This document shows positions 10,507 to 62,852 of a DNA stretch of 64,000 nt, piece after piece. The stretch is from an uncultured Planctomycetia bacterium (GTDB taxonomy: Bacteria; Planctomycetota; Planctomycetia; Pirellulales; Thermoguttaceae), in NCBI GenBank assembly GCA_963719005.1, contig CAVRAR010000014.1, positions 1,392,901-1,456,900 on the forward strand, in the 5' to 3' direction. The position numbers were made by a program, and so were the translations under genes. The notes beneath the pieces were generated by a model. It was given only the letters and a program-made list of their open reading frames with translations, had not been told where the DNA came from and searched no databases. Each line of letters opens with the position of its first letter. Positions within the stretch are counted from its first letter, which is position 1.

Positions 10507-11703
10507 ATGTATCTCAGCCGATTCGGTGTGAAGAACTACAAGTGTCTCGGCGATATCGACATCCCGCTGACGCCGATTCACGTGCTGATTGGGCAGAATG
10601 ACTGCGGAAAGACGAGCTTGCTGGAAGCGATGGCGGCGTTCTACTCAACTGGGGAGAAGCCCGTGTCAGAGGTCTTTCCTGAGCCGTGGGCGGGGCCGGA
10701 ACTTGTCCGTCACGGAGCGCGAGAACGGCGTGTTGAACTGTGGGGCGAATGGGCAAACCTCGCGGCAGGCGATCTCTCTTCGGCGTTTCCGACGTTTCGC
10801 TACGGTCTGTCCGTGGATTTTCCGCCTCCTGACCATCGTTCTCTCCACACAAGGAATGGATGGACCGAGACGAATGGTGAAAGACACCCGTTTCCCCCGG
10901 GGCAAGCCCTACGCGATTCTCTCGGCGAGGATCGCGTGAGAAACGAAGCGAGTGCACTTTCGATGGTCCTGATACCGGCGCACCAATACGCACTTGACGC
11001 GAGTCAAATGGCGCTGCCGGCGGGTTTTGATTCCTTGCGCAGATTTCGCCTTGCTCCGGACGGATTTGGTTTGGCGACACTCCTTGACGACATTCTCAGT
11101 TTCGACCCAAACCGATTTCTTCAAATTCAAGGAGAGTTTTGCGGTTTCTTTCCGCAATTCCGAAAAGTTCAACTAGAAACGGAGTACGGCATTGATCGCA
11201 CGGTAACAGCAGACGGGCTACCTCAATCGTCGAGGGTAACGGGCAAAGGCATTTACTTGGAGATGAACTCCGGCCAGAGGGTTCGCGCTCGCCACGCCTC
11301 TGACGGAGCGATTCTATTCCTCGGGCTCCTTGCTCTGGCGCATTCACCCCAACAGCCAGGCTCACTCTTATTGGAGGAGCCTGAGAACGGCGTATACCCG
11401 ATGCGGCTGGGGCAGATTATCAAGCTACTGAAACAGATGGTGACTCGTACCGAGGGCGTGCAGTTCCCGCAGATTGTAATAACGACGCACTCGCCCTACG
11501 TGCTGAGTTTCTTTGAGCCAGAGGAGGTAACGCTACTTAGTCGCATGTCGGGAGAGCCGGATGCTCCCGTCCGCGCCCGGCCGCTCCGCGACGCTCCGAA
11601 CATCCGCGAACGATTAGGCAACGATTTCTATTTGGGCGAACTTTGGTATAACCTGAGTGAAGGAGAACTGTTCGGTGACGAGCCGCGCCAAAGTTGTGAT
11701 TGA
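10507..11703 (+). CDS. ABC-type (AAA_21/AAA_15-like) ATPase, defense-associated family
   Basis: Walker A GQNDCGKTSLLEAM, Walker B/D-loop LLLEEPENGVYP, H-loop ITTHSPYVL. Start is 12 nt after the sigma-54 activator stop. About 55% GC. Confidence 0.75.
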   Translation: MYLSRFGVKNYKCLGDIDIPLTPIHVLIGQNDCGKTSLLEAMAAFYSTGEKPVSEVFPEPWAGPELVRHGARERRVELWGEWANLAAGDLSSAFPTFRYGLSVDFPPPDHRSLHTRNGWTETNGERHPFPPGQALRDSLGEDRVRNEASALSMVLIPAHQYALDASQMALPAGFDSLRRFRLAPDGFGLATLLDDILSFDPNRFLQIQGEFCGFFPQFRKVQLETEYGIDRTVTADGLPQSSRVTGKGIYLEMNSGQRVRARHASDGAILFLGLLALAHSPQQPGSLLLEEPENGVYPMRLGQIIKLLKQMVTRTEGVQFPQIVITTHSPYVLSFFEPEEVTLLSRMSGEPDAPVRARPLRDAPNIRERLGNDFYLGELWYNLSEGELFGDEPRQSCD

Positions 11704-20586: not shown

Positions 20587-21993
20587 ATGGAGGTGGCGAT
20601 GTCTGGTTGGCCGTTTCGTTTCATCCATGCCAGCGACCTCCACCTGGAACGGCCGCTGATGGGCGTGGCCGAAGTGCCCGACCATCTCCGCGATCTGTTT
20701 CTCGAAGCCCCCTACACGGCGGCGCGACGGGTGTTCGACGCGGCATTAGTCGAGGATGTCAAATTCGTAGTTCTTTCGGGCGGTGTCGTTGCGCCGGGAG
20801 GTTCCGGTCCGCGGGGACCGTTGTTCCTGGCCGAGCAGTTCACCCGGCTGGCGGAACGGGGGATCGCCGTCTATTGGGCCGGCTCGGCGACCGATCCGCC
20901 GGAGGTCTGGCCGGCGTCCGTCCGGCTGCCGCAAAATGTTCATGTTTTCCCTCGGGGTCGAATCGAGGAACTGGTGGTGCAGGGCGATGGCGGGGCGAAC
21001 GTGAAGGGAAGCGTCAAGGGGGACAGTCCCATTTTCGCCGAGACGAAAATCGGGACAGTCCCCGACACGAAAACTGGGACAGTCCCCGGGCCGCTGGCGC
21101 GAGTGGCGGGCGTCAGTCGCGATGAGCGGCGACCCTGGCAGCCCACCGACTTCCAATCCGATCCCGCCGGTCTGTACACGATTGTCGTCGCCCACGGCCA
21201 GCCCGATCTAGCGGTGCTGCCAACCCGCGGGATTCACTATTGGGCCTTGGGCGGGCGGCACGATCGAAGCACGCCGCTGTGCGCCGCTGCCGGCGGCGTT
21301 TTGCACGCCAGCTTGGAGACCGCCCCGGTTTTGCCGCAATCATCGGGCACTTCGCAAGTGGCCCATTATTGCGGCACGCCACAAGGCCGGCGGCCCGAGG
21401 AGTGCGGCATTCACGGCTGCACGCTGGTGCAAGTCGACGAACAACGCCAGACGCGAACCAGCCTGATTCCGACCGACTCGGCGCGTTGGATCGGCGAGCG
21501 GCTGCTGATTGACGAAACCACGACGGCCGAGGAGTTGGAATCGCGGCTCCGCGAGCGCATGCACGCGCTGTTGGAAGCGACGCCGGCGGTGGCCCTGCTG
21601 ATCTCGTGGACGATCGCCGGCCGCGGCCCGCTGCTGGGCTCGCTGCGGCGCGGGGACGCGGCCGACGGGCTGCTCGATCGGCTCCGCGGCGACTACGGCT
21701 ATCGACAGCCGGCCGCGTGGAGCGTGGCGATCGAGGTCGAGCTGTCCGAAACGCTGCCGCCCGAATGGTACGAACAGGAGACGATTCGCGGCGACTTTCT
21801 GCGGGCGATTCGCCAGTTGCAGATGAACCCCGACGAGCCGCTGGCGTTGGAGCAATACCTGGCCGAGGCGCATCGGGCGGGCACGCTGGCCGCGGCGGTC
21901 GCCTTTCCCGGCAAGACGGCCCGCGACGGCGTTTTACGCGAGGCGGCGGCGCTGGGCGTCGATCTGCTCAGCGGCGAGGAGGCCCAGGCATGA
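20587..21993 (+). CDS. SbcD/YhaO-like calcineurin-type metallophosphoesterase (DNA repair exonuclease subunit)
   Basis: ..FRFIHASDLHLE.. phosphoesterase motif I. Stop overlaps the start of the downstream ATPase (ATGA). Carries an in-frame family-A palindrome insertion at 21018-21088. Confidence 0.7.
   Translation: MEVAMSGWPFRFIHASDLHLERPLMGVAEVPDHLRDLFLEAPYTAARRVFDAALVEDVKFVVLSGGVVAPGGSGPRGPLFLAEQFTRLAERGIAVYWAGSATDPPEVWPASVRLPQNVHVFPRGRIEELVVQGDGGANVKGSVKGDSPIFAETKIGTVPDTKTGTVPGPLARVAGVSRDERRPWQPTDFQSDPAGLYTIVVAHGQPDLAVLPTRGIHYWALGGRHDRSTPLCAAAGGVLHASLETAPVLPQSSGTSQVAHYCGTPQGRRPEECGIHGCTLVQVDEQRQTRTSLIPTDSARWIGERLLIDETTTAEELESRLRERMHALLEATPAVALLISWTIAGRGPLLGSLRRGDAADGLLDRLRGDYGYRQPAAWSVAIEVELSETLPPEWYEQETIRGDFLRAIRQLQMNPDEPLALEQYLAEAHRAGTLAAAVAFPGKTARDGVLREAAALGVDLLSGEEAQA
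21018..21088. repeat. palindromic element, family A (GGGGACAGTCCCATTTTCGCCGAGACGAAAATCGGGACAGTCCCC plus an extra half unit), in-frame inside the sbcD-like gene
   Basis: Hairpin seen directly. Translated in-frame as ..GDSPIFAETKIGTVPDTKTGTVPG... Confidence 0.85.
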
Positions 21994-24900
21994 AAATCAC
22001 GAACCTCGACGTCGATGGCTACGGCGTTTGGAGCGGCCTGCGGATCGAACGCTTCTCCGACGCCCTGAACGTCTTCTACGGGCCGAACGAGGCCGGCAAA
22101 ACGACGCTGCTGCAATTCATCCGCTCGATGCTCTACGGCTTTTCGCCGCAGCGGCAGCGAGTATTTGCCGCCGCTGCATGGCGGACGGCCCGGCGGAACG
22201 CTCGACGTGGCCGGACCGCACGGCCGCTTCCAGATCAGCCGCCACGATTCGGCCGCCGACGGCACGCCGGGCGAGCAGCTTACGCTGACCGCTCCCGACG
22301 GCACCCGGCAGGGCGAGCATTTCGTCAAGGTGCTGCTGTCGAACGTCGACGAAACGGTCTTCAACAACGTCTTCGCCGTCGGCCTGCGCGAAATCCAGGA
22401 GTTGGCCACGCTCGGCGACACCGAAGCAGCCGAACTGCTCTACAATCTCACCGCCGGGCTGGATCGCGTCTCGCTGGTCGAGGTGTTGCAGGAGTTGGAC
22501 GGCCTCGCGCAACCGCATCCTCGACGCCGCCGGCCGGCCGTGCCAGGTGCTGCAACTGCTGGCCGATTATGAGAAGCTTCGGGCGGAGATCGACGAGCTT
22601 GGCCGCGGTCGGCCATCGCTACGGTCACGTGGCCGCCGAACGCGAGCAACTGCACGCGGAAATCACGCAACTCGAAGAAGAAGCCAATCGCATCGAGCGG
22701 CTTGCCCGCGTGACCGACCTGGCCCTGGCGGTGCGCGACCGCTGGACGCAGCGGGCCGCGCTCGACGAGCAATTGTCGGCGATCGGGCCGCTGAAGATCA
22801 TGCCGGAAGCGGCCGTCGAGCGGCTCGACGCCCTCAACGCCCGAATCCAGAAGCACCAGGAACACCTCGACCGCTTCGCCCGGCAGAGCGAGGCGCTTGC
22901 GGAGCGAATTCGCCGGGCTGGCCGTCAACGAGTCGCTCTGGCGTCAGGCCGCGCGGATCGAGGCGTTCAAGGAACAAGAGCCGTGGATCGCGCAGTTGCA
23001 GGGCCAGATCGGCGAGCTGGAGAAGGAAATCGCCGGCCTCGGCGCGGAATTGACCGCCGAGAGCGAGCGGCTGGGGCTGGGCGCTGAGAGCGTCAAAGAG
23101 TGCGGCGAAGGGGACAGTCCCATTTTCGCTGACACGAAAATCGGGACAGTCCCCCTGCTGCCGGAGATTTCGGCCAAGCGGCTTGCGTCGCTTCGATTGC
23201 CGGCCAAGTTGGTGCAACAGGCGCGACGGCGATTGCAGGAGGCGCGGCAAGCGGCCGCGCGGGCCGCCGACAACGTTCACGCGCTCGCCGAGCAGATCGA
23301 AACGGCCCTGGCCGAGCATGGCCAATCGAACCTGACTTCCGCCCTGGACGCCGCGGGCAATCTCGTCTCGCAGTACCGCCGCCGCGTGCAGATCGACGAG
23401 CGGCTCGACCAGTTGGCTCGCCATCGGACCGAACTGGAGGAGCGGAGCCGCAATTGCAGCGACCGGCAACTGCTGCCCGTCAATACGTTGGTCTGGACTT
23501 GGCGCCATGTTCGTCGTCGGCATGGTGCTTGGTGCTGGCGGGGCTCTTCCTGTCGGGCCCGATCACCGGCGGGATCGGCTGGGGATTGGTAGTGGTGGGG
23601 CTTGGCGGCATCGGGGCGGCCGTCGGCAGCAAGACGTTGATCGAACGCTCGAACGCCAAGCAACTCGAAGCCTGCCAGAAGCAACTCGCCACGCTGAAAT
23701 CGCAGGTCGAGCAGACCGAGGACGACCGCGATACTTTGGACGCCCAACTGCCGCGCGGCGGAGGGCCGATCGTCAGCCGGCTTCAGACCGCGGAGAGCGA
23801 CTTGGCTGCCTTGGAGGCAATCGCGCTCGCAGGACGCCCGGCGCGCCGCAGCACAGCAAGACGCCGACGTCGCCGCACGCCGGGCGGACGAGGCGGAGCA
23901 GTCGCTCAAGACCGCGCGACGACGCTGGCGCGAGGCGCTGGCCGCGGCGGGACTTCCCGAACACAATCGCCCCGAAACAGGCTCGCCGGCTGGTCGAGCG
24001 CGGCGATTGGATCGCCGAAACGCAGCGGCGTCTTGCGCAGCGCCGCGAGGAAGCTCGCCCGGCGGCAAGCGGAATTGGATTCCTTCGCGGCCCGGGTCGT
24101 TCAACTTGCCGCGGATGCAGGGGTGTCGCTCGCCTCGCTCACCTTGCTCGACCAGTTGAGCGAGCTTGCCGAGGCCGCCGCGCGGCAGGCGACGTTTGTC
24201 GAGCGCCGCGAGGAGATTCGCCGTCAAGCGGCGGCGCCTTCGTGCCGGACAAAGCAAGCACGAGGAGGCGATCGGCCGCCAGAAACACCGCCGCCGGCAG
24301 TTGTTCATCGAGGTCGGCGTCAAGGACGAGCAGGAGTTCCGCCAGCGGGCGTTGGAGTGCGCCAGGACCGACGTGCTGCGGCGGCAACGCGAGGCGGTCG
24401 CCCACGACATCGAAGCGGCGCTGGCCTCGCAATGCTCCGAAGACGCAATTCGACAGCAGTTGGAAGCCGACTATCCCGGCCTGCTCGAGGGGCGATCGGG
24501 CGAGTTGCGGCAGCGGCTGGCCGGCATCCAGGAGCAACTGCACGGGCTGCTGGAGAAGCGCGGCCGGCTGAGCGGGCAATTGGAATCGCTGGCCGCCGAC
24601 CGGCGAATGGCCTCGAAGCAACTCGATCTGGCCGTGCTGGAAAAGCGGCTCGAAGACGCCGTGCACCGTTGGCAAGTGCTGGCCACAACCTGCCGCATCC
24701 TCGACGTGATCCGCGAGGCCTACCAGCAGCATCGCCAGCCGGAGACGTTGCAGGAGGCATCCGTCTATCTCGACCGGCTGACGCAAGGGCATTACCGGCG
24801 GGTGTGGACGCCGCTGGGCGATCGCTCGCTGCGGGTTGACGACGCCGAGGGGCGAGCCTTGCCGGTCGAGTCGCTCAGCCGCGGCACGCGCGAGCAGCTT

Positions 24901-25395: not shown

Positions 25396-25445
25396 GAACC
25401 TTAGTTTTGCCTAAACCGCCGCATCACATCCCGACCCTACCCGCC

Positions 25446-25522
25446 GTGTGCCACTGCTTGGAACAAGCAGTGCCGGGGCAGCAGGTTACGCCCCACACTG
25501 CTTCTGCGAAGCAGTGGCACAC
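25446..25522. repeat. palindromic element family C (GTGTGCCACTGCTTGGAACAAGCAGTGCC..CACTGCTTCTGCGAAGCAGTGGCACAC), intergenic between convergent genes
   Basis: Near-perfect 77-bp palindrome. Second copy at 38847-38923 lies inside a CDS. Could act as a bidirectional terminator here. Confidence 0.8.
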
Positions 25523-25558
25523 TGGTGGCCAATATCGCTGCACGGCGAGAAATGCGGG

Positions 25559-26599
25559 CTAATCTTTCGCCGGGAGCAGCCCTCGGCGCTTCAGGAATTG
25601 CAGGATCGCCTCGGCGGCGTAGCGATGCCCTTGGTCGTTGGGATGGTAGAGGTCGCGGCCGAGGGCCGAGAGACGGCCGTGCCGGCGCAACTGCGGCAGG
25701 AGATCGAGGTACTCCACGCCGATCGCGTCCAACAGGCCCTTCACGTACGTCAATTCGGTCTGTGCGTTGCCGTCGTCGAACAACGGGAACAGAACGACGA
25801 AGAACGGAATCCGCGTGGTGCGCGAGTTGTCGCGAAACCAAACAAACGCCGTCCGCTGTTGGTCGTTGCCGGGCAACTGAACGCCGCCGTTGAGGCTCGG
25901 CGAGTCGGAGGTGTGATCCCGCAAGAGCCAGAGAAGCCGCGATTGAAGGAAACCGGCTCCGTCGCCGGAGAAATCCGGCCGCCCTACGCGCGTTCCCACC
26001 AGCTCGTACTCCGGCCACTCGTTGTTGGGCCACGGCCGGCCCGGATCTCTTTTCTTCAACGACATCACGTCGGCGTCGTTCGAGCAGCATTCCAAGAGGA
26101 GCACGTCGGTCTGAATCTGCCGCCAGCCGTCGCGATAAAAATGCATCTCTTGCCACGTGTTGTATCCGCCGACGCCCAACGGCAGCACCTCGACCTTCCG
26201 GCCGGGCAGTTCCTTCGCGACCGCGGAGCGGAGAAAATCGGTGTAGTTGACGAATCCCGGCAGGTTCCACTCCTCGGTCAGCGAATCGCCCACGGCCACG
26301 ACGCGGAACGTATCGGCCGGCTTGCGGAAGGAGAACTTCCGCAGCCGGTTGTCGGGGTAATGCACCGCCAGCGAACCCTTCCCGTCCGTCTCGAAGCCGC
26401 TGAAGGTGTAGTAAAGCGGGGAGTCAGGGTTCAGCGTCGGGCTGAAGTAGCCGGAGTTTCGCTGGATCGTATAGCGGATCGTAGTCCTCGGCGGGAAGAA
26501 GATCCGTGCGGCGATCTCCGCAGCCAGGAGCGCGAAGAACACGCCCGCCACGGCGGCCGCCAGGCGAAAGAGCCATTTCTTGACTTTCGGCGCGTTCAT
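25559..26599 (-). CDS. SGNH/GDSL-family hydrolase with N-terminal TM anchor
   Basis: ..VVAVGDSLTEE.. (GDS(L) block I) and ..LYHPNDQGH.. (block V, DxxH). Start MNAPKVKKWLF.. chosen because the upstream part of the ORF is read-through. Confidence 0.7.
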   Translation of the reverse strand: MNAPKVKKWLFRLAAAVAGVFFALLAAEIAARIFFPPRTTIRYTIQRNSGYFSPTLNPDSPLYYTFSGFETDGKGSLAVHYPDNRLRKFSFRKPADTFRVVAVGDSLTEEWNLPGFVNYTDFLRSAVAKELPGRKVEVLPLGVGGYNTWQEMHFYRDGWRQIQTDVLLLECCSNDADVMSLKKRDPGRPWPNNEWPEYELVGTRVGRPDFSGDGAGFLQSRLLWLLRDHTSDSPSLNGGVQLPGNDQQRTAFVWFRDNSRTTRIPFFVVLFPLFDDGNAQTELTYVKGLLDAIGVEYLDLLPQLRRHGRLSALGRDLYHPNDQGHRYAAEAILQFLKRRGLLPAKD

Positions 26600-34696: not shown

Positions 34697-36131
34697 CTAC
34701 ATCAGCGGGCTGAAGAGCTTGGCCAGATTCATCTTCAAGCGGCTGCTGCGCGTCTGCGAGGGCCATTGGCCGGGCACGGCTTGCAGCGATTTGTCCAGAT
34801 AGCCTTCCTGCAAGGCGCGCATCTCCTCGACCGCCGAGCCCGCATGGACGAACAGATTCAACTCGAAGTTCAAGTTGAACGAACGGATGTCGTAATTCGC
34901 CGAGCCGAACATGCCCAACTCGTCGTCGATCGTGAGCGTCTTGGCGTGAAGCATGCCCTCTTGAAAGAGGAAGACGCGGACGCCGAATTTCATCAAATAG
35001 TCGCAATAGAAGGCGCCGGCGGCGTTGGTCACCCGATGGTCGCATCGTTTCGGGATGACGAGATCGACCTGCACGCCCCGCAACGCCGCCAGACGCAACG
35101 CCAGCAACATCGCTTCGTTCGGGATGAAATAAGGCGATGTGATGACGACGCGACGACGCGCCAGGAAGATCGACCTCACCACGAGATCCTGAAACAACTC
35201 GGTCGGCTGGTCGGGGCCGGTCGGAATCACCTGGATGGCGATCGAGCCGGCAGGATGGCCCGCCGGAAACAGGGCCGGATCTTCCAGCAACTCGCCCGAG
35301 GCGTAGAACCAGTCTTCCAGGAAAATGCCCTGAAGCTGCCGGACGACCGGGCCGGTGATGCGGGCCATGATGTCGAACCAGACGCCCGCCCGCTTGTGGC
35401 CGTAGCTGGCCTCGACGATGTTCTGCGAACCGGTGAACGCCACCGTGCCGTCGATCACCGCCAGCTTGCGGTGGTTGCGCAGATCGAGCCGCGAAAAAGG
35501 AATCCGCCACAGATTGGCGGGCAGAACCGGGAAAACTCGCACTCCTTGCTGCCGCATCGACGGCGCCAGGTGGCGGAAGAGCCGCCGCGAGCCCACGGCG
35601 TCGGCCAACACGCGGCACACGACGCCCCGCGCCGCCGCCCGGGCCAGCGCCGTGGCCACGCGATGCCCCACCGAATCGTCCTTGAAGATGTAGAACAACA
35701 GATGAACGTCGTGCCGGGCGGCGTCGATCTCGGCGATCAGCCGGTCGATCACCACGTCGGTATCGGACATCAGCGAGATGGCGTTGCCGCCCACGACCGG
35801 CAGGCCGCCGCCGTGCTCGGCCAGTTGCGACCAATACGTTATACTCGTCGCTGTCGTCGGGGACGATGCGGTTCGCTGCAACGCTCGGATGCTCGAAGAC
35901 GTCGAGCAGCGGGCGAAGCTGCTGCCGACGCGTCAATTGCCGCCGACCCAGCCGATTCTCGCCGATCAGCAGGTAGAGCCCCAAGCCGATCCAGGGCTCG
36001 AAAAAGACGATGGCCAGCCACGCCAGACACGTGGCCGGCTTTTCCTTGCGCAACACAATCACCGGCAGCATGGTCAGGCGGATCACCCATTCGCTTGCCG
36101 CCAGCACTTGGGTCCAATAGGCGACGTTCAT
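34697..36131 (-). CDS. cls: cardiolipin synthase, one frameshift
   Basis: N-terminal TM part (MNVAYWTQVLAASEWVIRLTMLPVIVL..) in one frame. Catalytic part in another frame with two HKD motifs (..HRKLAVIDG.. and ..LHAKTLTIDDELGMFGSANYD..). Shift near 35860. Confidence 0.85.
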
Positions 36132-36303
36132 ACGGCAAGTATACGATGCTCGGACAAGTGGGGCGGTGGAATCGCGGGTGTTGAGTGTCGGATATGTACG
36201 ATCGGAACGCCCCGCGACCGCGGTCGCGGGGGATGAGCAGCGACGCCGTTTCACCCCGCGACCGCAGTCGCGGGGCGTCTGCCGATGCGCCGTAACGAAC
36301 GCA

Positions 36304-36714: not shown

Positions 36715-36780
36715 CGGGGGCGGACATTCTTGTCTCCCGGAGAAAATGTGGCAGACATGGCAGACAAGGGTGTTTGCCAC
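36715..36780. repeat. palindromic element family D (GGCGGACATTCTTGTCT..CAGACA..), intergenic
   Basis: Related copies at 41452-41509 and 38926-38960. Confidence 0.7.
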
Positions 36781-36790
36781 ACACAAGGGG

Positions 36791-38026
36791 ATGACCTCCT
36801 ATATGCGATTCCAAATCAGCCTCTTATCGTTGATAATCATCCTTATTGCGGCCGGTTGCAGCGGCCCGATGGATGCCGCCGCCGCAACCAAGCCGGGGAC
36901 GAAGCCGAAGGAGAAAGCCCCAATGTCGTACGTGCGCGTTCGAGTCATCGGTGCCGATGGCAAGCTCACCGGCCCGGTGGAAGTTCCCAAAGTCGTCCTT
37001 TCCGACGCCGAGTGGCGGCTGCGCCTGACGCCGGAGCAATACCGCATCACCCGCGGCAAGAACACCGAAGCGGCTTTCTGCGGCGGGCTGCTGAATAACG
37101 ACAAGCCGGGCATGTACCTCTGCGTCTGCTGCAATCTCCCGTTGTTCGAGTCGAATGCGAAGTTCCACTCGGGCAGCGGTTGGCCCAGCTTCTTTCAGCC
37201 CGCGGCAAAGGAGAACATCCGCGAGAAGCGCGATACCAGCCATCACATGGTCCGCACCGAAATCCTCTGCCAGCGTTGCGGCGCGCATCTGGGGCACTTG
37301 TTCGACGACGGGCCCCCGCCGACCGGCATGAGGTACTGCTTGAACTCCGAGGCCCTGCGATTTGTCGCCACCGATCAATTGAAGACTATCGCCGAGCCCG
37401 ACGCGGCGCTGAAGGGGACAGTCCCATTTTCGCTGAGACGAAAATCGGGACAGTCCCCCGAGCGAGCCGAGGCGGTCTTCGCCGGCGGCTGTTTCTGGTG
37501 CGTCGAGGCGGTCTTTCGGCAGCTTAACGGCGTTCTAGACGTCACCAGCGGCTATGCCGGCGGAGACGCCAGCACCGCCAACTACGCGGCCGTTTCGACC
37601 GGCCTGACCGGCCACGCCGAATCGGTCCGCATCGTCTACGACCCGCGAAAAATCTCGTACGAAACGCTGCTGAAGGTCCATTTTGCCACGCACGATCCGA
37701 CCAGTTTGAACCGCCAGGGAGCCGACGTCGGCACGCAGTACCGCTCGGCCGTCTTCTACGCCAACGACGAGCAAAAGCAGATTGCCGAAGCGATGATCGC
37801 CGACCTGACCGACGCCAAAGTGTTCCACCACCCGATCGTGACGACGCTGGAGCCGCTGGTGGCGTTTTATCCCGCCGAGGCCCATCATCAGAACTACGTC
37901 GCCTGTCACGCCCATGAGCCCTACATCCGCTCCGTGGCGCTGCCGAAAGTGGCCAAGGTGCGGGCGAAATTCAAGGACTTGCTGAAGAAGCCGAAAGTGG
38001 CGGAGCCAAAGTCCATCGCACGCTAG
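36791..38026 (+). CDS. msrAB: bifunctional peptide-methionine sulfoxide reductase MsrB-MsrA (lipoprotein)
   Basis: Lipobox LIAAGC. MsrB/SelR motifs ..CGGLLNND..YLCVCCNLPLFESNAKFHSGSGWPSF..RCGAHLGHLFDDGP... MsrA ..FAGGCFWCVEAVF... A family-A palindrome lies in-frame in the inter-domain linker. Confidence 0.9.
   Translation: MTSYMRFQISLLSLIIILIAAGCSGPMDAAAATKPGTKPKEKAPMSYVRVRVIGADGKLTGPVEVPKVVLSDAEWRLRLTPEQYRITRGKNTEAAFCGGLLNNDKPGMYLCVCCNLPLFESNAKFHSGSGWPSFFQPAAKENIREKRDTSHHMVRTEILCQRCGAHLGHLFDDGPPPTGMRYCLNSEALRFVATDQLKTIAEPDAALKGTVPFSLRRKSGQSPERAEAVFAGGCFWCVEAVFRQLNGVLDVTSGYAGGDASTANYAAVSTGLTGHAESVRIVYDPRKISYETLLKVHFATHDPTSLNRQGADVGTQYRSAVFYANDEQKQIAEAMIADLTDAKVFHHPIVTTLEPLVAFYPAEAHHQNYVACHAHEPYIRSVALPKVAKVRAKFKDLLKKPKVAEPKSIAR
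37423..37460. repeat. palindromic element family A, in-frame in the msrB-msrA linker
   Basis: GGGGACAGTCCCATTTTCGCTGAGACGAAAATCGGGACAGTCCCCC, translated as ..KGTVPFSLRRKSGQSP... Confidence 0.85.
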
Positions 38027-38045: not shown

Positions 38046-39623
38046 TCACGCCGCTCGGCCGAGAATCGATGCAGAAGCGGCAGTTCGTGCGTCCTTCGCT
38101 TTCGCGGCACGGACTGTTGCCCAATCCGTTCGGGCGATCAGCACCATTGCGGCCATCAGCCATGCCGTAGTGCCAAAACCGAGCAGGCCGACGCGGCCGC
38201 CGTAGGGGAGGAGAATGTAGTGCAGAATGGAGAGCACCGGCAGAATTGCGGCCATGACGATGCCCGCCCGCGGCCGGCCGTGACGATCGAGCCAGAGCGG
38301 TACGAGCAGGATGGCGGGGGCGAGAAGCAGGAAGTAATGGGCACGCGCCACCGGCGAGACCGCCAACATCGTGACGCACGACAACGCAAAGCCCGTGGCC
38401 ATGTTCAACTTGTTGCCGGGCTGCCGAGCAAGCTGAACGCCTAACGCCAGTAGGGTCAGGCCGAGCATCGCCCGCGACAAGAACAGAAATCGGTCGGAGG
38501 CCGGTGAATCCATCGCCATCTTCGGGGCGTCGAAGTTTTCGACCAGGCGATCATCGGGCCCGTCGGCGAAGACATGTGAGCCGAAGTTGCCCAATCGGTA
38601 GGCCGCGTTTTGCAGGCTCTGGTTGCGGGCGGAATGCGAATTGCCCGAGCGCGGGTCCATTCCGCCGTTGTCGGCCTTGGTGAGCATGAACCGCCCCCAC
38701 GTGTCCAAATGATGCAGGTTCGCGTTCCAACCGATCAGCATCGCCGGAACAATGAGGAAGAACAAAACCAGTCCGAGAGAAAAGCCGAAACTCGACGACA
38801 GGAAACGAAGCCCGCACAACGTGGCAAGCTCGCCCTTCTCGCTGCCGTGTGCCACTGCTTGCTCGCAAGCAGTGCGGGGCGGCGGGTTGCACTCGGCACT
38901 GCTTCTGCGAAGCAGTGGCACACCAGTGGAATCAGGGCAGACAGGAATGTCCGCCCTGCCGGCCGCCCGCCGTTTCGCATAGTTCCATGCCCATTCGGCC
39001 AGTTCCAGGAAGAGGAGAAACCCGACCGGCAGCGCCGGCACGATTTTCAATACGACGGGCAAGGCAAGCACGACGCCGCCGAGCAGCCAGGCGCGATAGG
39101 AGCGGCCGCTAAGAGTCACGCGGAGCCCCAGCAACAGCAGGTACATTTTGACGACGCCCACCTGCCCGCGTTGCAGACAGTTCAACGTCGGCAGCGCGGC
39201 GGCTGCCACCGCGGCAACGCCCAGCCAGGGAAGCCACCGCGTCCACGCGGCGCGCACCCGCGGATCTTCGTCGCAGACGATCGCCACGATTCGGCGGCAC
39301 TCGCGGTAGCAGCCCCAGCAGACCAACAGGTTCAAGAAGAACCAAACCGTCACCTGATCTTGCATCGGCAACGGATGCAGCGGGGCCAACAGCAGGGCGA
39401 ACAGCGGCGGATAGAGATAGGTCCAGCCGCGCGGATTGGCAACCTCGTAGGGCTCGCGGCCGTCGAAGAAGGCCGCGCCCGCCTCGGTGTACACCGTCAG
39501 ATCGGTCCTATGCTCTTCGGGGCAATCGGGATAGCAATATCCACGGCGGCGGACGTCGAGAAACCCCCAAACCGTCGCCGCCGCCAACAAGAGAATCAGC
39601 CATCGACCAGACCGACTACCCAT
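38046..39623 (-). CDS. GT87/DUF2029-family integral membrane glycosyltransferase (mannosyltransferase-like)
   Basis: Many TM helices. ..EPYEVANPRGWTYLYPPLFALLLAPL.. typical of DUF2029. Contains about 40 aa of in-frame palindrome insertion. Confidence 0.6.
   Translation of the reverse strand: MGSRSGRWLILLLAAATVWGFLDVRRRGYCYPDCPEEHRTDLTVYTEAGAAFFDGREPYEVANPRGWTYLYPPLFALLLAPLHPLPMQDQVTVWFFLNLLVCWGCYRECRRIVAIVCDEDPRVRAAWTRWLPWLGVAAVAAAALPTLNCLQRGQVGVVKMYLLLLGLRVTLSGRSYRAWLLGGVVLALPVVLKIVPALPVGFLLFLELAEWAWNYAKRRAAGRADIPVCPDSTGVPLLRRSSAECNPPPRTACEQAVAHGSEKGELATLCGLRFLSSSFGFSLGLVLFFLIVPAMLIGWNANLHHLDTWGRFMLTKADNGGMDPRSGNSHSARNQSLQNAAYRLGNFGSHVFADGPDDRLVENFDAPKMAMDSPASDRFLFLSRAMLGLTLLALGVQLARQPGNKLNMATGFALSCVTMLAVSPVARAHYFLLLAPAILLVPLWLDRHGRPRAGIVMAAILPVLSILHYILLPYGGRVGLLGFGTTAWLMAAMVLIARTDWATVRAAKAKDARTAASASILGRAA
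38847..38960. repeat. composite family-C (38847-38923) plus family-D (38926-38960) palindromic insertion inside the GT87 gene
   Basis: Same palindromes as 25446-25522 and 36715/41452. Translated in-frame as ..DIPVCPDSTGVPLLRRSSAECNPPPRTACEQAVAHGSEKGE... Confidence 0.8.
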
Positions 39624-39907
39624 AATGCCTTCGTACTTCGGTTTTTTGGGATGTACCGATTTCTGTGGCAATGGAACCGTCGCCGCGCCAAATTCCGGCA
39701 AAGGCAGTCCCCGTTTTTTCGTGACGGGCATGGCCGGCGATTGTAGCCGCGTCTGTTCCCCAGACGCAACCGCGATTTTCCTAGTTTTCCCCTTTTCGCG
39801 AACCCAGCGGGGCGATATGTTCACTTTCAGTCTTGCCGGCTGAAGCCGGAGCTACAAACACGATTGCTGGTTGTTTGGGAAAGTCTGGTCAATTGGAGGG
39901 TTCCGTG

Positions 39908-41451: not shown

Positions 41452-41509
41452 GCCGGTGGGCAGACATTCTTGTCTGTCACGTCTGTGGCAGGCAGGAATG
41501 TCCGCCCCA
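41452..41509. repeat. palindromic element family D (GGGCAGACATTCTTGTCTG..GGCAGGAATGTCCGCCCC), intergenic between aroE and bioD
   Basis: Hairpin seen directly. Confidence 0.7.
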
Positions 41510-41536
41510 CCGACGTTGATTCCAATGGTTGGCCCT

Positions 41537-61176: not shown

Positions 61177-61358
61177 AATGCTTCCTCACAGTTGCAGGCT
61201 CTTGAATTTCCGATTGCCACTGTCGCAGGACGACAGCCGGGAGCTAACAGCTCCCGGAGAGCAATCAGCGACTTCGCATATTCCGGGAGTCGTTGACTCC
61301 CGGCTATTCTTGTTGCTTAATTCGTTTACCTATCACAAAACAGTCTCGATTCGCAGCG

Positions 61359-62852
61359 TCACTCCGAACCCAGTTTTCGCGTTGCATCGATCGCCATCTT
61401 CTGCCCCAATTCCCCGATACGCGCCGCCGGGTCGAACGGGTCGGTCGGGCCTTGGTCGATAAGAACGTCGCGGGCGGGATTCATGTTGGCCGACACGGCC
61501 GCCAGCACGGCTTGATGGTCGCGAACGTCAACGTCGTCATCGACCACCACGAGTGTCTTGGCGAACATCATCGGCTGCAACCCCCATGCCGCATGAGCCG
61601 CACGGCGGCCCTGGCCGGCGTATGTCTTGCGAATCGATACCGACGCCCAATAACGCGCGGCGGCGGACTCGGGCATGTCGTAATCGACCAACTCGGGCAT
61701 CGCCGATCGCGTGAGCGGCAAGAACGCACGCTGCATCGCCCGAGCCACCGTCACGGCCTCGTGCGGCGGCTTTGCGGGAACCATCACCACGTAAATCGGA
61801 TTCGCCCGCTGCGTCAGGGCCGTTACGTGCATCACCGCTGCGGCCAGCGGCAGCGTGGCATGGCCCAACGGTCCGCACAACGGGCCAGCCGTCACCGGCG
61901 ACTCCACGGGATCGACGCAACCTTCCAGCACAATCTCCGCCTCGGCGGGCACCATGAGATCGACGTCGCGGCAGGCGACCACATCAAGCGGCTTTTGCCG
62001 CAACAAACCCGCAACGGCGCAAACGTCGCCCCCGGCCGGCAGCGGCGCCGCCGCCGCCAACAGGAACGCCGGATCGCCGCCGATGACCACAGCCAGCGGC
62101 ATCTTCCGGTTTCGCGCCCGATAGTCGCCCAACAACCGGGCGTGGTCGTCGTGCGCCGCCCAGCAGACGGCAAGCCGCGCGGCGTCGAGCTGTTGCAGAT
62201 CGAAACGTCCCGCAACCGGCCGATGCGAGTCGGCCTCGGCAGAGAAAACCACTGCGGACGTGATCGCACGCAAGGGGACGGAGGACGTTGTCGGGGACTG
62301 TCCTAATTTTTGCGGGCACCGCGGCGAAGCCGTGGTCGTCGAAGATGGGACTGTCCCCTTTGCCGGGATTTTCCCGACAACCTCTTCCGTCCCCATCCGC
62401 GCAGGCGAGACGCCTGCGCCACAAGCCAATAGCGGCAGTTCGTTCAGATCGATGTCGTCGCCCAGCCGCACGATCTGCTGACAGGCCGCCGACTTGACCT
62501 CGCGCGGCGTCACAGCGGAAATCGCCGCCGCCGGCGAGCCGCTCTTGAGGCGCTCGAACCAGCCTTCCGGCGAGGAGACATCGACCAGCCGAGCGATTCG
62601 TTCGGTCAACTGGTCGAGCGTCGAAATGCCCAGCGCCCGGCAGATGCGTCCTTCCGTGCCCAGCAGGTTGGCGAGCACCGGCAGATCGTGCCCCCTGACG
62701 ACCCCAAAGAGTAGAGCTGGTCCACCCGATCGTGCCGCTTGGGCGACAATCTCGCCGGCTTCCAGGCTTGCATCGACTTCGTTTTCCAGCCGGTTCAATT
62801 CGCCGTCGCGGCTCAGTTCTTCCAGAAACTCGGCTAGGCATCGGTATGGCAT
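61359..62852 (-). CDS. UbiD-family decarboxylase (MqnM-like, menaquinone biosynthesis)
   Basis: ..GGPALLFGVVRGHDLPVLANLLGTEGR.., ..ANPIYVVMVPAKPP.., C-terminal ..VVVDDDVDVRDHQAVLAAV..PARD.. UbiD blocks. Carries an in-frame family-A-variant palindrome at 62293-62358. Confidence 0.8.
   Translation of the reverse strand: MPYRCLAEFLEELSRDGELNRLENEVDASLEAGEIVAQAARSGGPALLFGVVRGHDLPVLANLLGTEGRICRALGISTLDQLTERIARLVDVSSPEGWFERLKSGSPAAAISAVTPREVKSAACQQIVRLGDDIDLNELPLLACGAGVSPARMGTEEVVGKIPAKGTVPSSTTTASPRCPQKLGQSPTTSSVPLRAITSAVVFSAEADSHRPVAGRFDLQQLDAARLAVCWAAHDDHARLLGDYRARNRKMPLAVVIGGDPAFLLAAAAPLPAGGDVCAVAGLLRQKPLDVVACRDVDLMVPAEAEIVLEGCVDPVESPVTAGPLCGPLGHATLPLAAAVMHVTALTQRANPIYVVMVPAKPPHEAVTVARAMQRAFLPLTRSAMPELVDYDMPESAAARYWASVSIRKTYAGQGRRAAHAAWGLQPMMFAKTLVVVDDDVDVRDHQAVLAAVSANMNPARDVLIDQGPTDPFDPAARIGELGQKMAIDATRKLGSE
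62293..62358. repeat. palindromic element, family A variant (GGGGACTGTCC..GGGACTGTCCCC with longer loop), in-frame in the ubiD-like gene
   Basis: Same GGGAC(A/T)GTCCC arms with a 42-nt loop. Translated as ..GKIPAKGTVPSSTTTASPRCPQKLGQSP... Confidence 0.75.

Follow-up and report, generated by a model that had tools for sequence, protein, structure and literature searches.

We analysed a 64-kb stretch of contig CAVRAR010000014.1, from an uncultured bacterium of the Thermoguttaceae (Planctomycetota), hereafter the window, in which a gene for a GT87-family membrane glycosyltransferase carries two palindromic repeats, C and D, that are translated as part of the protein. In the explanation that we consider probable, C is a doublet of repetitive extragenic palindromes (REPs) of the REPIN type, the class mobilised by REP-associated tyrosine transposases (RAYTs), which landed in the remnant of an older REPIN-like D doublet within a permissive, probably cytoplasmic loop of the enzyme. 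A first-pass annotation of the window had described two distinct palindrome families read in frame inside an unbroken GT87 gene, and both were recovered here. It had also described C and D as inserted back-to-back; an arrival of the two as a pair does not agree with the orthologs, since these hold a complete D doublet at the same nucleotide of which the window keeps the left half only. The features of the locus are as follows:

38046..39623, minus strand: gene for a membrane glycosyltransferase of the GT87 family (GT-C fold), 525 aa, described from Pfam PF09594, an ortholog-supported start, an AlphaFold2 (AF2) model, a match to PimE, and dN/dS
38847..38963, minus strand: all the DNA here that L006, the ortholog with an empty site, does not have, 114 nt (38 codons), the alignment being ambiguous by 3 nt at a CAC codon
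38847..38923, unstranded: C element, two REP hairpins in a 77-bp inverted doublet of the REPIN type, peptide read VPLLRRSSAECNPPPRTACEQAVAH
38853..38874, unstranded: REP hairpin 1 of C, CACTGCTT-GCTCGC-AAGCAGTG
38897..38917, unstranded: REP hairpin 2 of C, CACTGCTT-CTGCG-AAGCAGTG, the same sequence as the second hairpin at 25496-25516
38924..38932, unstranded: C-D junction of 9 nt, CAGTGGAAT, with a similar flank, TGGTGG, beside the C copy at 25446-25522
38933..38958, unstranded: D hairpin CAGGGCAGACA-GGAA-TGTCCGCCCTG, an older D doublet's left half, read ADIPVCP; the same hairpin with CCCTGAT occurs in L007

By family and by modelled fold the host gene is a GT87 / GT-C glycosyltransferase, and glycosyl transfer from a lipid-linked donor is its predicted activity. 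Its product scores 50.2 bits against the Pfam GT87 profile PF09594 (cut-off 25), which is present in all 120 listed homologs. The AF2 model, built on 35 orthologs, has a predicted template modelling (pTM) score of 0.85, and the top Foldseek match is the mycobacterial mannosyltransferase PimE (9dm5, E = 1.5e-6), which has the same multi-helix GT-C fold, followed by GPI mannosyltransferase I, PIG-U, ArnT and ALG3. The minus-strand open reading frame (ORF) 38046-39824 runs through C and D, reading ..GRADIPVCPDSTGVPLLRRSSAECNPPPRTACEQAVAHGSEKGE.. there, and, as the first-pass annotation had stated, no stop or frameshift interrupts it. Orthologs begin with MGSRSGRWL, which places the likely start at the ATG at 39623 and gives a protein of 525 aa. 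The raw ORF goes 67 codons further upstream, to a GTG at 39824. The database protein P0001 (482 aa), identical to the product of the window gene, is annotated with a start 43 residues downstream of ATG 39623 and is therefore without the first transmembrane helix (39494-39824).

Assemblies may break at repeats, the metagenome contig L001 begins just past the loop, and P0001 is annotated with the shortened N-terminus, all of which might suggest a dead gene or a chimeric join at the repeat. We nevertheless regard a pseudogene or a misassembly as scarcely credible. All 525 codons are intact and every residue invariant in the ortholog alignments is kept, both flanks are colinear with the orthologs and with the syntenic locus L008, and an identical protein lies on a 1.65-Mb contig. 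Codon changes specific to the window lineage comprise 18 synonymous versus 2 nonsynonymous ones, and pairwise dN/dS against five orthologs is 0.11-0.18. Judged by these codon comparisons, the GT87 gene is not decaying and is still under purifying selection.

The first-pass annotation had put the insert at about 40 aa in frame; it is indeed in frame, and the comparison with L006 sets its size at 38 codons. A peptide expected from translation through such an insert is VPLLRRSSAECNPPPR. The first-pass annotation had proposed a topology check of whether the insert falls in a loop, and it does: in the AF2 model the extra residues (about 222-260 of 525) form a coil with per-residue confidence (pLDDT) of 46-65, set between the long, confident helices 197-224 and 253-297. 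This loop lies between the sixth and seventh transmembrane helices. A 12-helix topology that obeys the positive-inside rule in every short loop places it in the cytoplasm and leaves two long conserved loops outside, as expected for GT-C enzymes; the rule fits throughout because residues 69-83 are treated as a juxtamembrane helix. A count of seven helices from the N-terminus, which makes the loop periplasmic, was rejected because it puts six arginines in a short outside loop. We thus infer that the cytoplasmic side is the most likely location of the insert.

The C copy in the GT87 gene (38847-38923) is stop-free in six of six frames, and the copy at 25446-25522 is open in five. As C is open in every frame, an insertion keeps the host frame as long as the net length is a multiple of three. 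C by itself measures 77 nt; the D remnant and the junction are counted in the net gain of 114 nt. In the mechanism that we propose, the gene would survive because this net addition is a multiple of three and C carries no stop in any frame, and because the loop would be disordered and would lie at a distance from the GT-C active site in the periplasm, probably on the cytoplasmic side. The frame being kept and the loop tolerant, the 38 extra residues are therefore best seen as tolerated passengers.

Element C, which runs from GTGTGCCACTGCTT to AAGCAGTGGCACAC, has a perfect terminal inverted repeat of 14 nt formed by these two sequences, and encloses two perfect hairpins of the form CACTGCTT-loop-AAGCAGTG. 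The 77-bp palindrome and its intergenic copy were both located where the first-pass annotation had reported them. The intergenic copy has the 3' end of a converging ORF on either side; the two copies have identical ends and stems and differ in their loops and spacer. The window holds four C hairpins, and the number of matches expected by chance, from shuffled sequence, is 0. Folded as single-stranded DNA (ssDNA), each copy forms one long hairpin, with energies of -29.4 kcal/mol (z = -6.9) for the copy in the gene and -29.6 kcal/mol for the other (z about -6 to -7 for the two); D units, too, fold much more stably than shuffled sequence, and the palindromes overall reach z = -5 to -7. Target-site duplications are absent, the flanks of the two copies being gctgcc / cagtgg and cccgcc / tggtgg. 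Rfam, at its gathering thresholds, gave no match within the 64-kb window, C and D included.

25446..25522, unstranded: second C element, 77 bp, intergenic between converging ORFs, nested in an imperfect inverted repeat of greater length, CCGCATCACATCCC ... GGCGAGAAATGCGG

The longer repeat in which this copy is nested covers 25419-25563. Its outer motif, CCGCATTTCTCACCAC / GTGGTGAGAAATGCGG, brackets C elements also in L012, L082, L086, L088, L094 and L097, and the outer repeats around C differ in other genomes.

A scan with the C hairpin over one genome per species found it in at least 110 stretches, all from Planctomycetota assemblies, among the matches listed. They belong to Thermoguttaceae, Pirellulales, Planctomycetaceae, Fuerstiella and Phycisphaeraceae, and several genomes contain 4-7 C loci, which are lower bounds. 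Half of the clear cases are inverted doublets, and the 51 clear doublets have a modal distance of 73 nt between GTGCC and GGCAC, i.e. 77 nt with the ends. The ends are sharp (GTGTGCC...GGCACAC), the flanks are unrelated, and no target duplication is seen. The target-site preference that had been suggested as a check did not emerge, as no conserved sequence or consensus flank lies beside about 50 C doublets.

A candidate transposase family for C was found in a related genome. In the Thermoguttaceae assembly L028, the ORF 1386-2132 (248 aa) scores 95.6 bits (cut-off 80) against NCBIfam NF047646, the family of RAYTs, and has the motifs HVH, WQ and YIHNNP. Single inverted C hairpins flank it at 1408-1432 and 2160-2184, each within inverted repeats of about 65 nt around the gene (1340-2260). 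A decayed remnant of a RAYT gene of the same type lies between C hairpins in L087 (1301-1659), and L068 (5900-6800) encodes a RAYT 49% identical to that of L028 and flanked by different hairpins, GTGGCATGGGCAA...TTGCCCATG. By analogy, the L028 arrangement matches the defining picture of REP/REPIN-RAYT systems (PMC3116915, PMC6006769), and from this likeness we infer that C in the window genome was also moved by a RAYT. C would then be a non-autonomous REPIN, made of two inverted short REP hairpins and a spacer, which a REP-associated tyrosine (HUH/Y1) transposase recognising ssDNA hairpins would move in trans. In P0095 the GT87 loop contains GAMPTTSVGMAP, the reading of a motif related to the L068 hairpins.

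Family D has its core, GGGCAGACAGGAATGTCCGCC, at 38935-38955 in the GT87 gene, with an extended stem at 38933-38958. The first-pass annotation had placed D immediately after C; the two are close neighbours separated by a 9-nt gap. It had also listed D copies at 36715 and 41452, and copies do exist there, slightly offset (36719-36778 and a clean inverted doublet core at 41459-41506). D is an inverted doublet in several copies, among them 41459-41506, L007 and L008, with ends CCGGTGGGGCAGACA...TGTCTGCCCCACCGG, and the window copy in the GT87 gene is a single hairpin. The other D copies of the window are:

41455..41512, unstranded: intact D doublet with GGTGGG...CCCACC ends, intergenic, just past the shikimate dehydrogenase gene
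36719..36778, unstranded: degenerate D doublet, upstream of msrB-msrA

The loop is hypervariable over the 120 orthologs and contains palindrome-derived peptides; between its anchors, the stretch is most often 38 aa long in distant orthologs and is 83 aa long in the window. Ortholog DNA was examined as individually retrieved loci, and a metagenome scan for related loci gave 5. The site is empty in L006 (protein P0007), where CGCCGGGCA is joined directly to CACGGCGGCGAG and the window has the additional 114 nt. L007 and L008 have a complete D doublet at the identical nucleotide, with ends GGTGGGGCAGACA...TGTCTGCCCCAC, and its hairpins translate as ADIPVCP and GRQECLPH. At least 10 orthologs have ADIPVC and/or RQECLP(H/Y) in the loop, with confirmation at the DNA level in L007 and L008. 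The window retains the left D hairpin plus CCCTGAT, identical to L007, after which C takes the position of the D spacer and right hairpin. No full 77-bp C was found among the ortholog loops examined; the distant ortholog L121 has one hairpin of the C type in the corresponding position. In the L008 ortholog (10660-10710) a tandem duplication of 24 nt, with GAGCACCCGGTGGGGCAGACATTC occurring twice, lies at the D doublet's left end and is read APGGADIRAPGGADI.

The suggestion that orthologs might carry the same segment thus came out positive for D and negative for C, and from these comparisons D is not special to the window genome. D is shared with relatives and C is not; D is therefore probably the older resident and C a lineage-specific addition, which is the order of events that the comparison points to in the window lineage. 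In a first step, an older REPIN-like D doublet would have entered the loop codons between the sixth and seventh transmembrane helices. In a second step, C would have landed in or beside this doublet in the window lineage, with loss of the D spacer and right hairpin.

The same observations can be read without a transposase. The loop content would then have been swapped through recombination, through gene conversion, or through slippage and template switching when hairpins are replicated, with palindromes elsewhere in the genome as donors, and C would have replaced the right half of D in one event. The exact position of C over the D spacer and right hairpin looks like a replacement and not a simple insertion, target-site duplications are absent, the 24-nt duplication in the D element of L008 is typical of slippage, and a deletion across GGC microhomologies could turn the window state into the L006 junction. 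Nonetheless we think this course unlikely. Y1/HUH transposition leaves no target duplications anyway, a related genome does hold a RAYT gene with C hairpins on both sides, and the recurrence of a 77-bp unit with sharp GTGTGCC...GGCACAC ends across many unrelated flanks and genomes fits a defined mobile unit better than ad hoc conversion tracts.

Several observations weigh against a RAYT-moved C that landed in an older D. No RAYT or other Y1 transposase gene lies within the 64-kb window, and none for D was seen in the loci examined, where no dedicated collection scan for D was made. A Y1 gene about 4 kb from the L008 GT87 ortholog was considered as the mover of C or D and rejected, as it is of the IS200 type and flanked by AGCCCCGAAGGGGC hairpins. 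The foot of C is GTGT(G)CC in nearly all copies, with no GTAG or CGTC tag; this tag defines two REP superfamilies and not REPs in general (PMC3733652). The L006 junction, GGCACAC, equals the end of C and could arise from the window state through a deletion between GGC repeats. L006 may accordingly be a secondary loss, a deletion derivative and not a naive site, and the order of events would then not be fixed. The cytoplasmic assignment of the loop depends on charge counts and on helix limits set by hand. Finally, most of the other long ORFs that span C look spurious or lack support.

The rejected IS200-type gene of L008 (15250-16000) is flanked by AGCCCCGAAGGGGC and also by CCCAGGGC...GCCCTGGG hairpins. 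It has no counterpart in the window, whose synteny with L008 ends near 34697.

As for those ORFs, long open frames span 31 C elements in other genomes, and most were rejected as genuine in-frame cases, being without Pfam support and in several instances showing a non-coding GC1>GC3 pattern. Two were set aside individually: the C element of L021 lies upstream of the true N-terminus, and that of L019 lies 43 residues ahead of an SNF2 domain, where the GC3 pattern is not a coding one. L062 is likely a second in-frame case, with an ORF of 2507 aa that has a coding GC1/2/3 pattern and carries a C doublet in the same frame as in the window (VPLLRRSS...QAVAH). By these sequence patterns it is the only convincing case beyond the window; L038 and L104 are possible ones.

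The GT87 loop has been used by more than C and D. Six families were confirmed in it as DNA hairpins, and protein sequences suggest several more, such as GDSPIF..KIGTVP and GAMPTTSVGMAP:

D: L007 and L008, DNA hairpins
C: window (doublet) and L121 (single hairpin), DNA hairpins
GCAGGCG-type doublet: L010, DNA hairpins
GCGTGC...GCACGC hairpin: L122, DNA hairpin
AAAAGGGGACAGGTCCAATTTG...CAAATTGGACC...CCCCTTTT: L123, DNA hairpin
GGGGACGGAG...CTCCGTCCCC: L124, DNA hairpin

On a neighbour-joining tree of the GT87 orthologs built without the loop, sister lineages have unlike loops: the window (left D hairpin plus C) versus P0002 (GCAGGCG type), P0003 (D doublet) versus P0007 (empty), and P0019 (D) versus P0020 (GGGGACGGAG family), with a synonymous divergence of about 0.26 in these pairs. 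In P0010 and P0011 the D doublet is followed, back to back, by a third family, and in other genomes other palindrome families sit within or beside C elements. These loops and the turnover between sisters bear out the view of the first-pass annotation that the families are mobile and pile up side by side. Near C elements, hairpins of other kinds are overrepresented (9 of 121 versus 2.9 expected, the control maximum also being 9). This enrichment is real but weak, and it is confounded, as both kinds of element favour intergenic DNA.

A further idea, which we offer tentatively and would not expect to be correct, is that the loop acts as a landing pad in this GT87 ortholog group, beyond merely tolerating insertions: a loop with one REP hairpin would draw Y1-driven elements of other families to its hairpin-forming DNA, which they would insert into or replace.

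Two further observations concern these proteins and palindromes. P0019 carries a further insertion, about 27 aa long (GSQWNRRRWGGSSTATPTGSTATPTAA; alignment A1, columns 517-543), in another short loop of the GT87 protein. L119 (1-780) encodes a distant Y1 transposase homolog with terminal inverted repeats AAAGGGGGACAGGCGCGCTTATTG / CAATAAGCGCGCCTGTCCCCCTTT, which resemble the ends of the L123 loop palindrome.

The recurrence of palindromes in one loop may also be taken as a sign that the insert has been co-opted, either as a Cys-containing, Arg-rich peptide in the loop or as a stable mRNA hairpin that slows translation and aids membrane insertion. The loop codons are predicted to form a very stable mRNA hairpin (about -92 kcal/mol), the stems of C are still perfect despite their coding location, the frame of C is identical in the window and L062, and many orthologs hold some palindrome in the loop. 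Yet the loop content differs between sisters, and palindromes are absent in P0007, P0012 and many distant orthologs. Moreover, the insert peptide is a low-confidence coil in the AF2 model, a recent arrival explains the perfect stems equally well, and the same elements occur in intergenic DNA. We therefore find co-option very improbable and retain the reading of C as a tolerated REPIN.

REP/REPIN-RAYT systems are among the known systems closest to C. As in these systems, C has a short palindromic REP unit in many copies, usually paired in inverted orientation around a spacer of some 20 nt and forming one long hairpin; the HUH tyrosine transposase gene of L028 is flanked by inverted C hairpins; and related RAYTs pair with other hairpin families (L068). 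C differs in its host phylum, Planctomycetota, and in its 5' foot, GTGT(G) and not GTAG or CGTC. The RAYT of C was seen in a related genome and not in the window, and the cleavage and mobilisation of C are predicted by analogy. REPINs are described as extragenic, whereas the copy at 38847-38923 lies in a gene and is translated; that at 25446-25522 does lie outside genes. Di Nocera et al. (2013) reported REPs wholly inside ORFs of known proteins in several species, and REPs in Planctomycetes, with dimers in opposite orientation being common (PMC3733652). Those intragenic REPs are tagged by GTAG or CGTC, and C and D carry neither tag.

Rickettsia palindromic elements (RPEs; Ogata et al. 2000, 2002) are in-frame palindromic elements in working genes, as summarised in later papers (PMC10969869, PMC3733652). 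According to these summaries, RPEs resemble C and D as palindromic selfish DNA that lies in frame in functional genes, at sites tolerated by the fold, with several families per genome. C has another host phylum and is shorter (77 bp versus roughly 100-150 bp), with no sequence relation to RPEs implied, and is open in all six frames, whereas RPEs as summarised use one conserved peptide frame. They are also described there as having no identified transposase, in contrast to the candidate transposase family of C, and the GT87 case differs in that one loop is reused by many families. In bacterial interspersed mosaic elements (BIMEs), and in insertion sequence (IS) elements that insert into REPs, palindromic units cluster and act as landing sites, as cited in PMC3733652; compared with that account, the C/D mosaic lies in a coding loop and its targeting is deduced from co-occurrence. 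Like a classical, DDE-derived MITE (a small inverted-repeat transposable element), C has terminal inverted repeats (14 nt), but it is without the MITE target-site duplication. No paper with the C or D sequences or their peptides was found in the searchable literature.

Other palindromes lie near the GT87 gene. A third family at 37415-37457 has GGGACAGTCCC units spaced by 32 nt, ATTTTCG...CGAAAAT lying in between, and it is read in frame as KGTVPFSLRRKSGQSP in the MsrB-MsrA domain linker of the neighbouring gene. In the syntenic ortholog of L008 this linker has an unrelated sequence of nearly the same length. The doublet is repeated at 23111-23153, and the family also occurs at 21020-21086 and 62294-62357. 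Two perfect hairpins, CCCCGCGACCGC(G/A)GTCGCGGGG, stand 44 nt apart at 36210-36275, intergenic and upstream of msrB-msrA; the stretch that holds them (about 36153-36303) gave no blastn alignment to L008. At 61237-61303, the hairpins CCGGGAGC...GCTCCCGG and CCGGGAGT...ACTCCCGG, 46 nt apart, form a pair with a C-like doublet layout.

C is a new REPIN family that behaves like Rickettsia palindromic elements. The phenomenon itself is known; the unusual feature is one loop colonised repeatedly, with nested replacement. REPINs have been described as extragenic residents, and translated palindromic elements are known mainly from Rickettsia; here a REPIN family outside Proteobacteria, with a candidate transposase, is translated within a gene under purifying selection. 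The peptides ADIPVCP, GRQECLPH and VPLLRRSS..QAVAH in Planctomycetota proteins flag translated repeats and not domains, and such peptides can mislead gene callers and alignments. The same-site series (empty, D doublet, D plus C, other families) can serve for studies of target choice, turnover rate and peptide load. If the landing-pad idea were true, the turnover of REPINs would keep rewriting a protein loop, as at least six families and the differences between sisters would attest, and REPIN/RAYT systems would generate diversity in the disordered loops of Planctomycetota membrane proteins.

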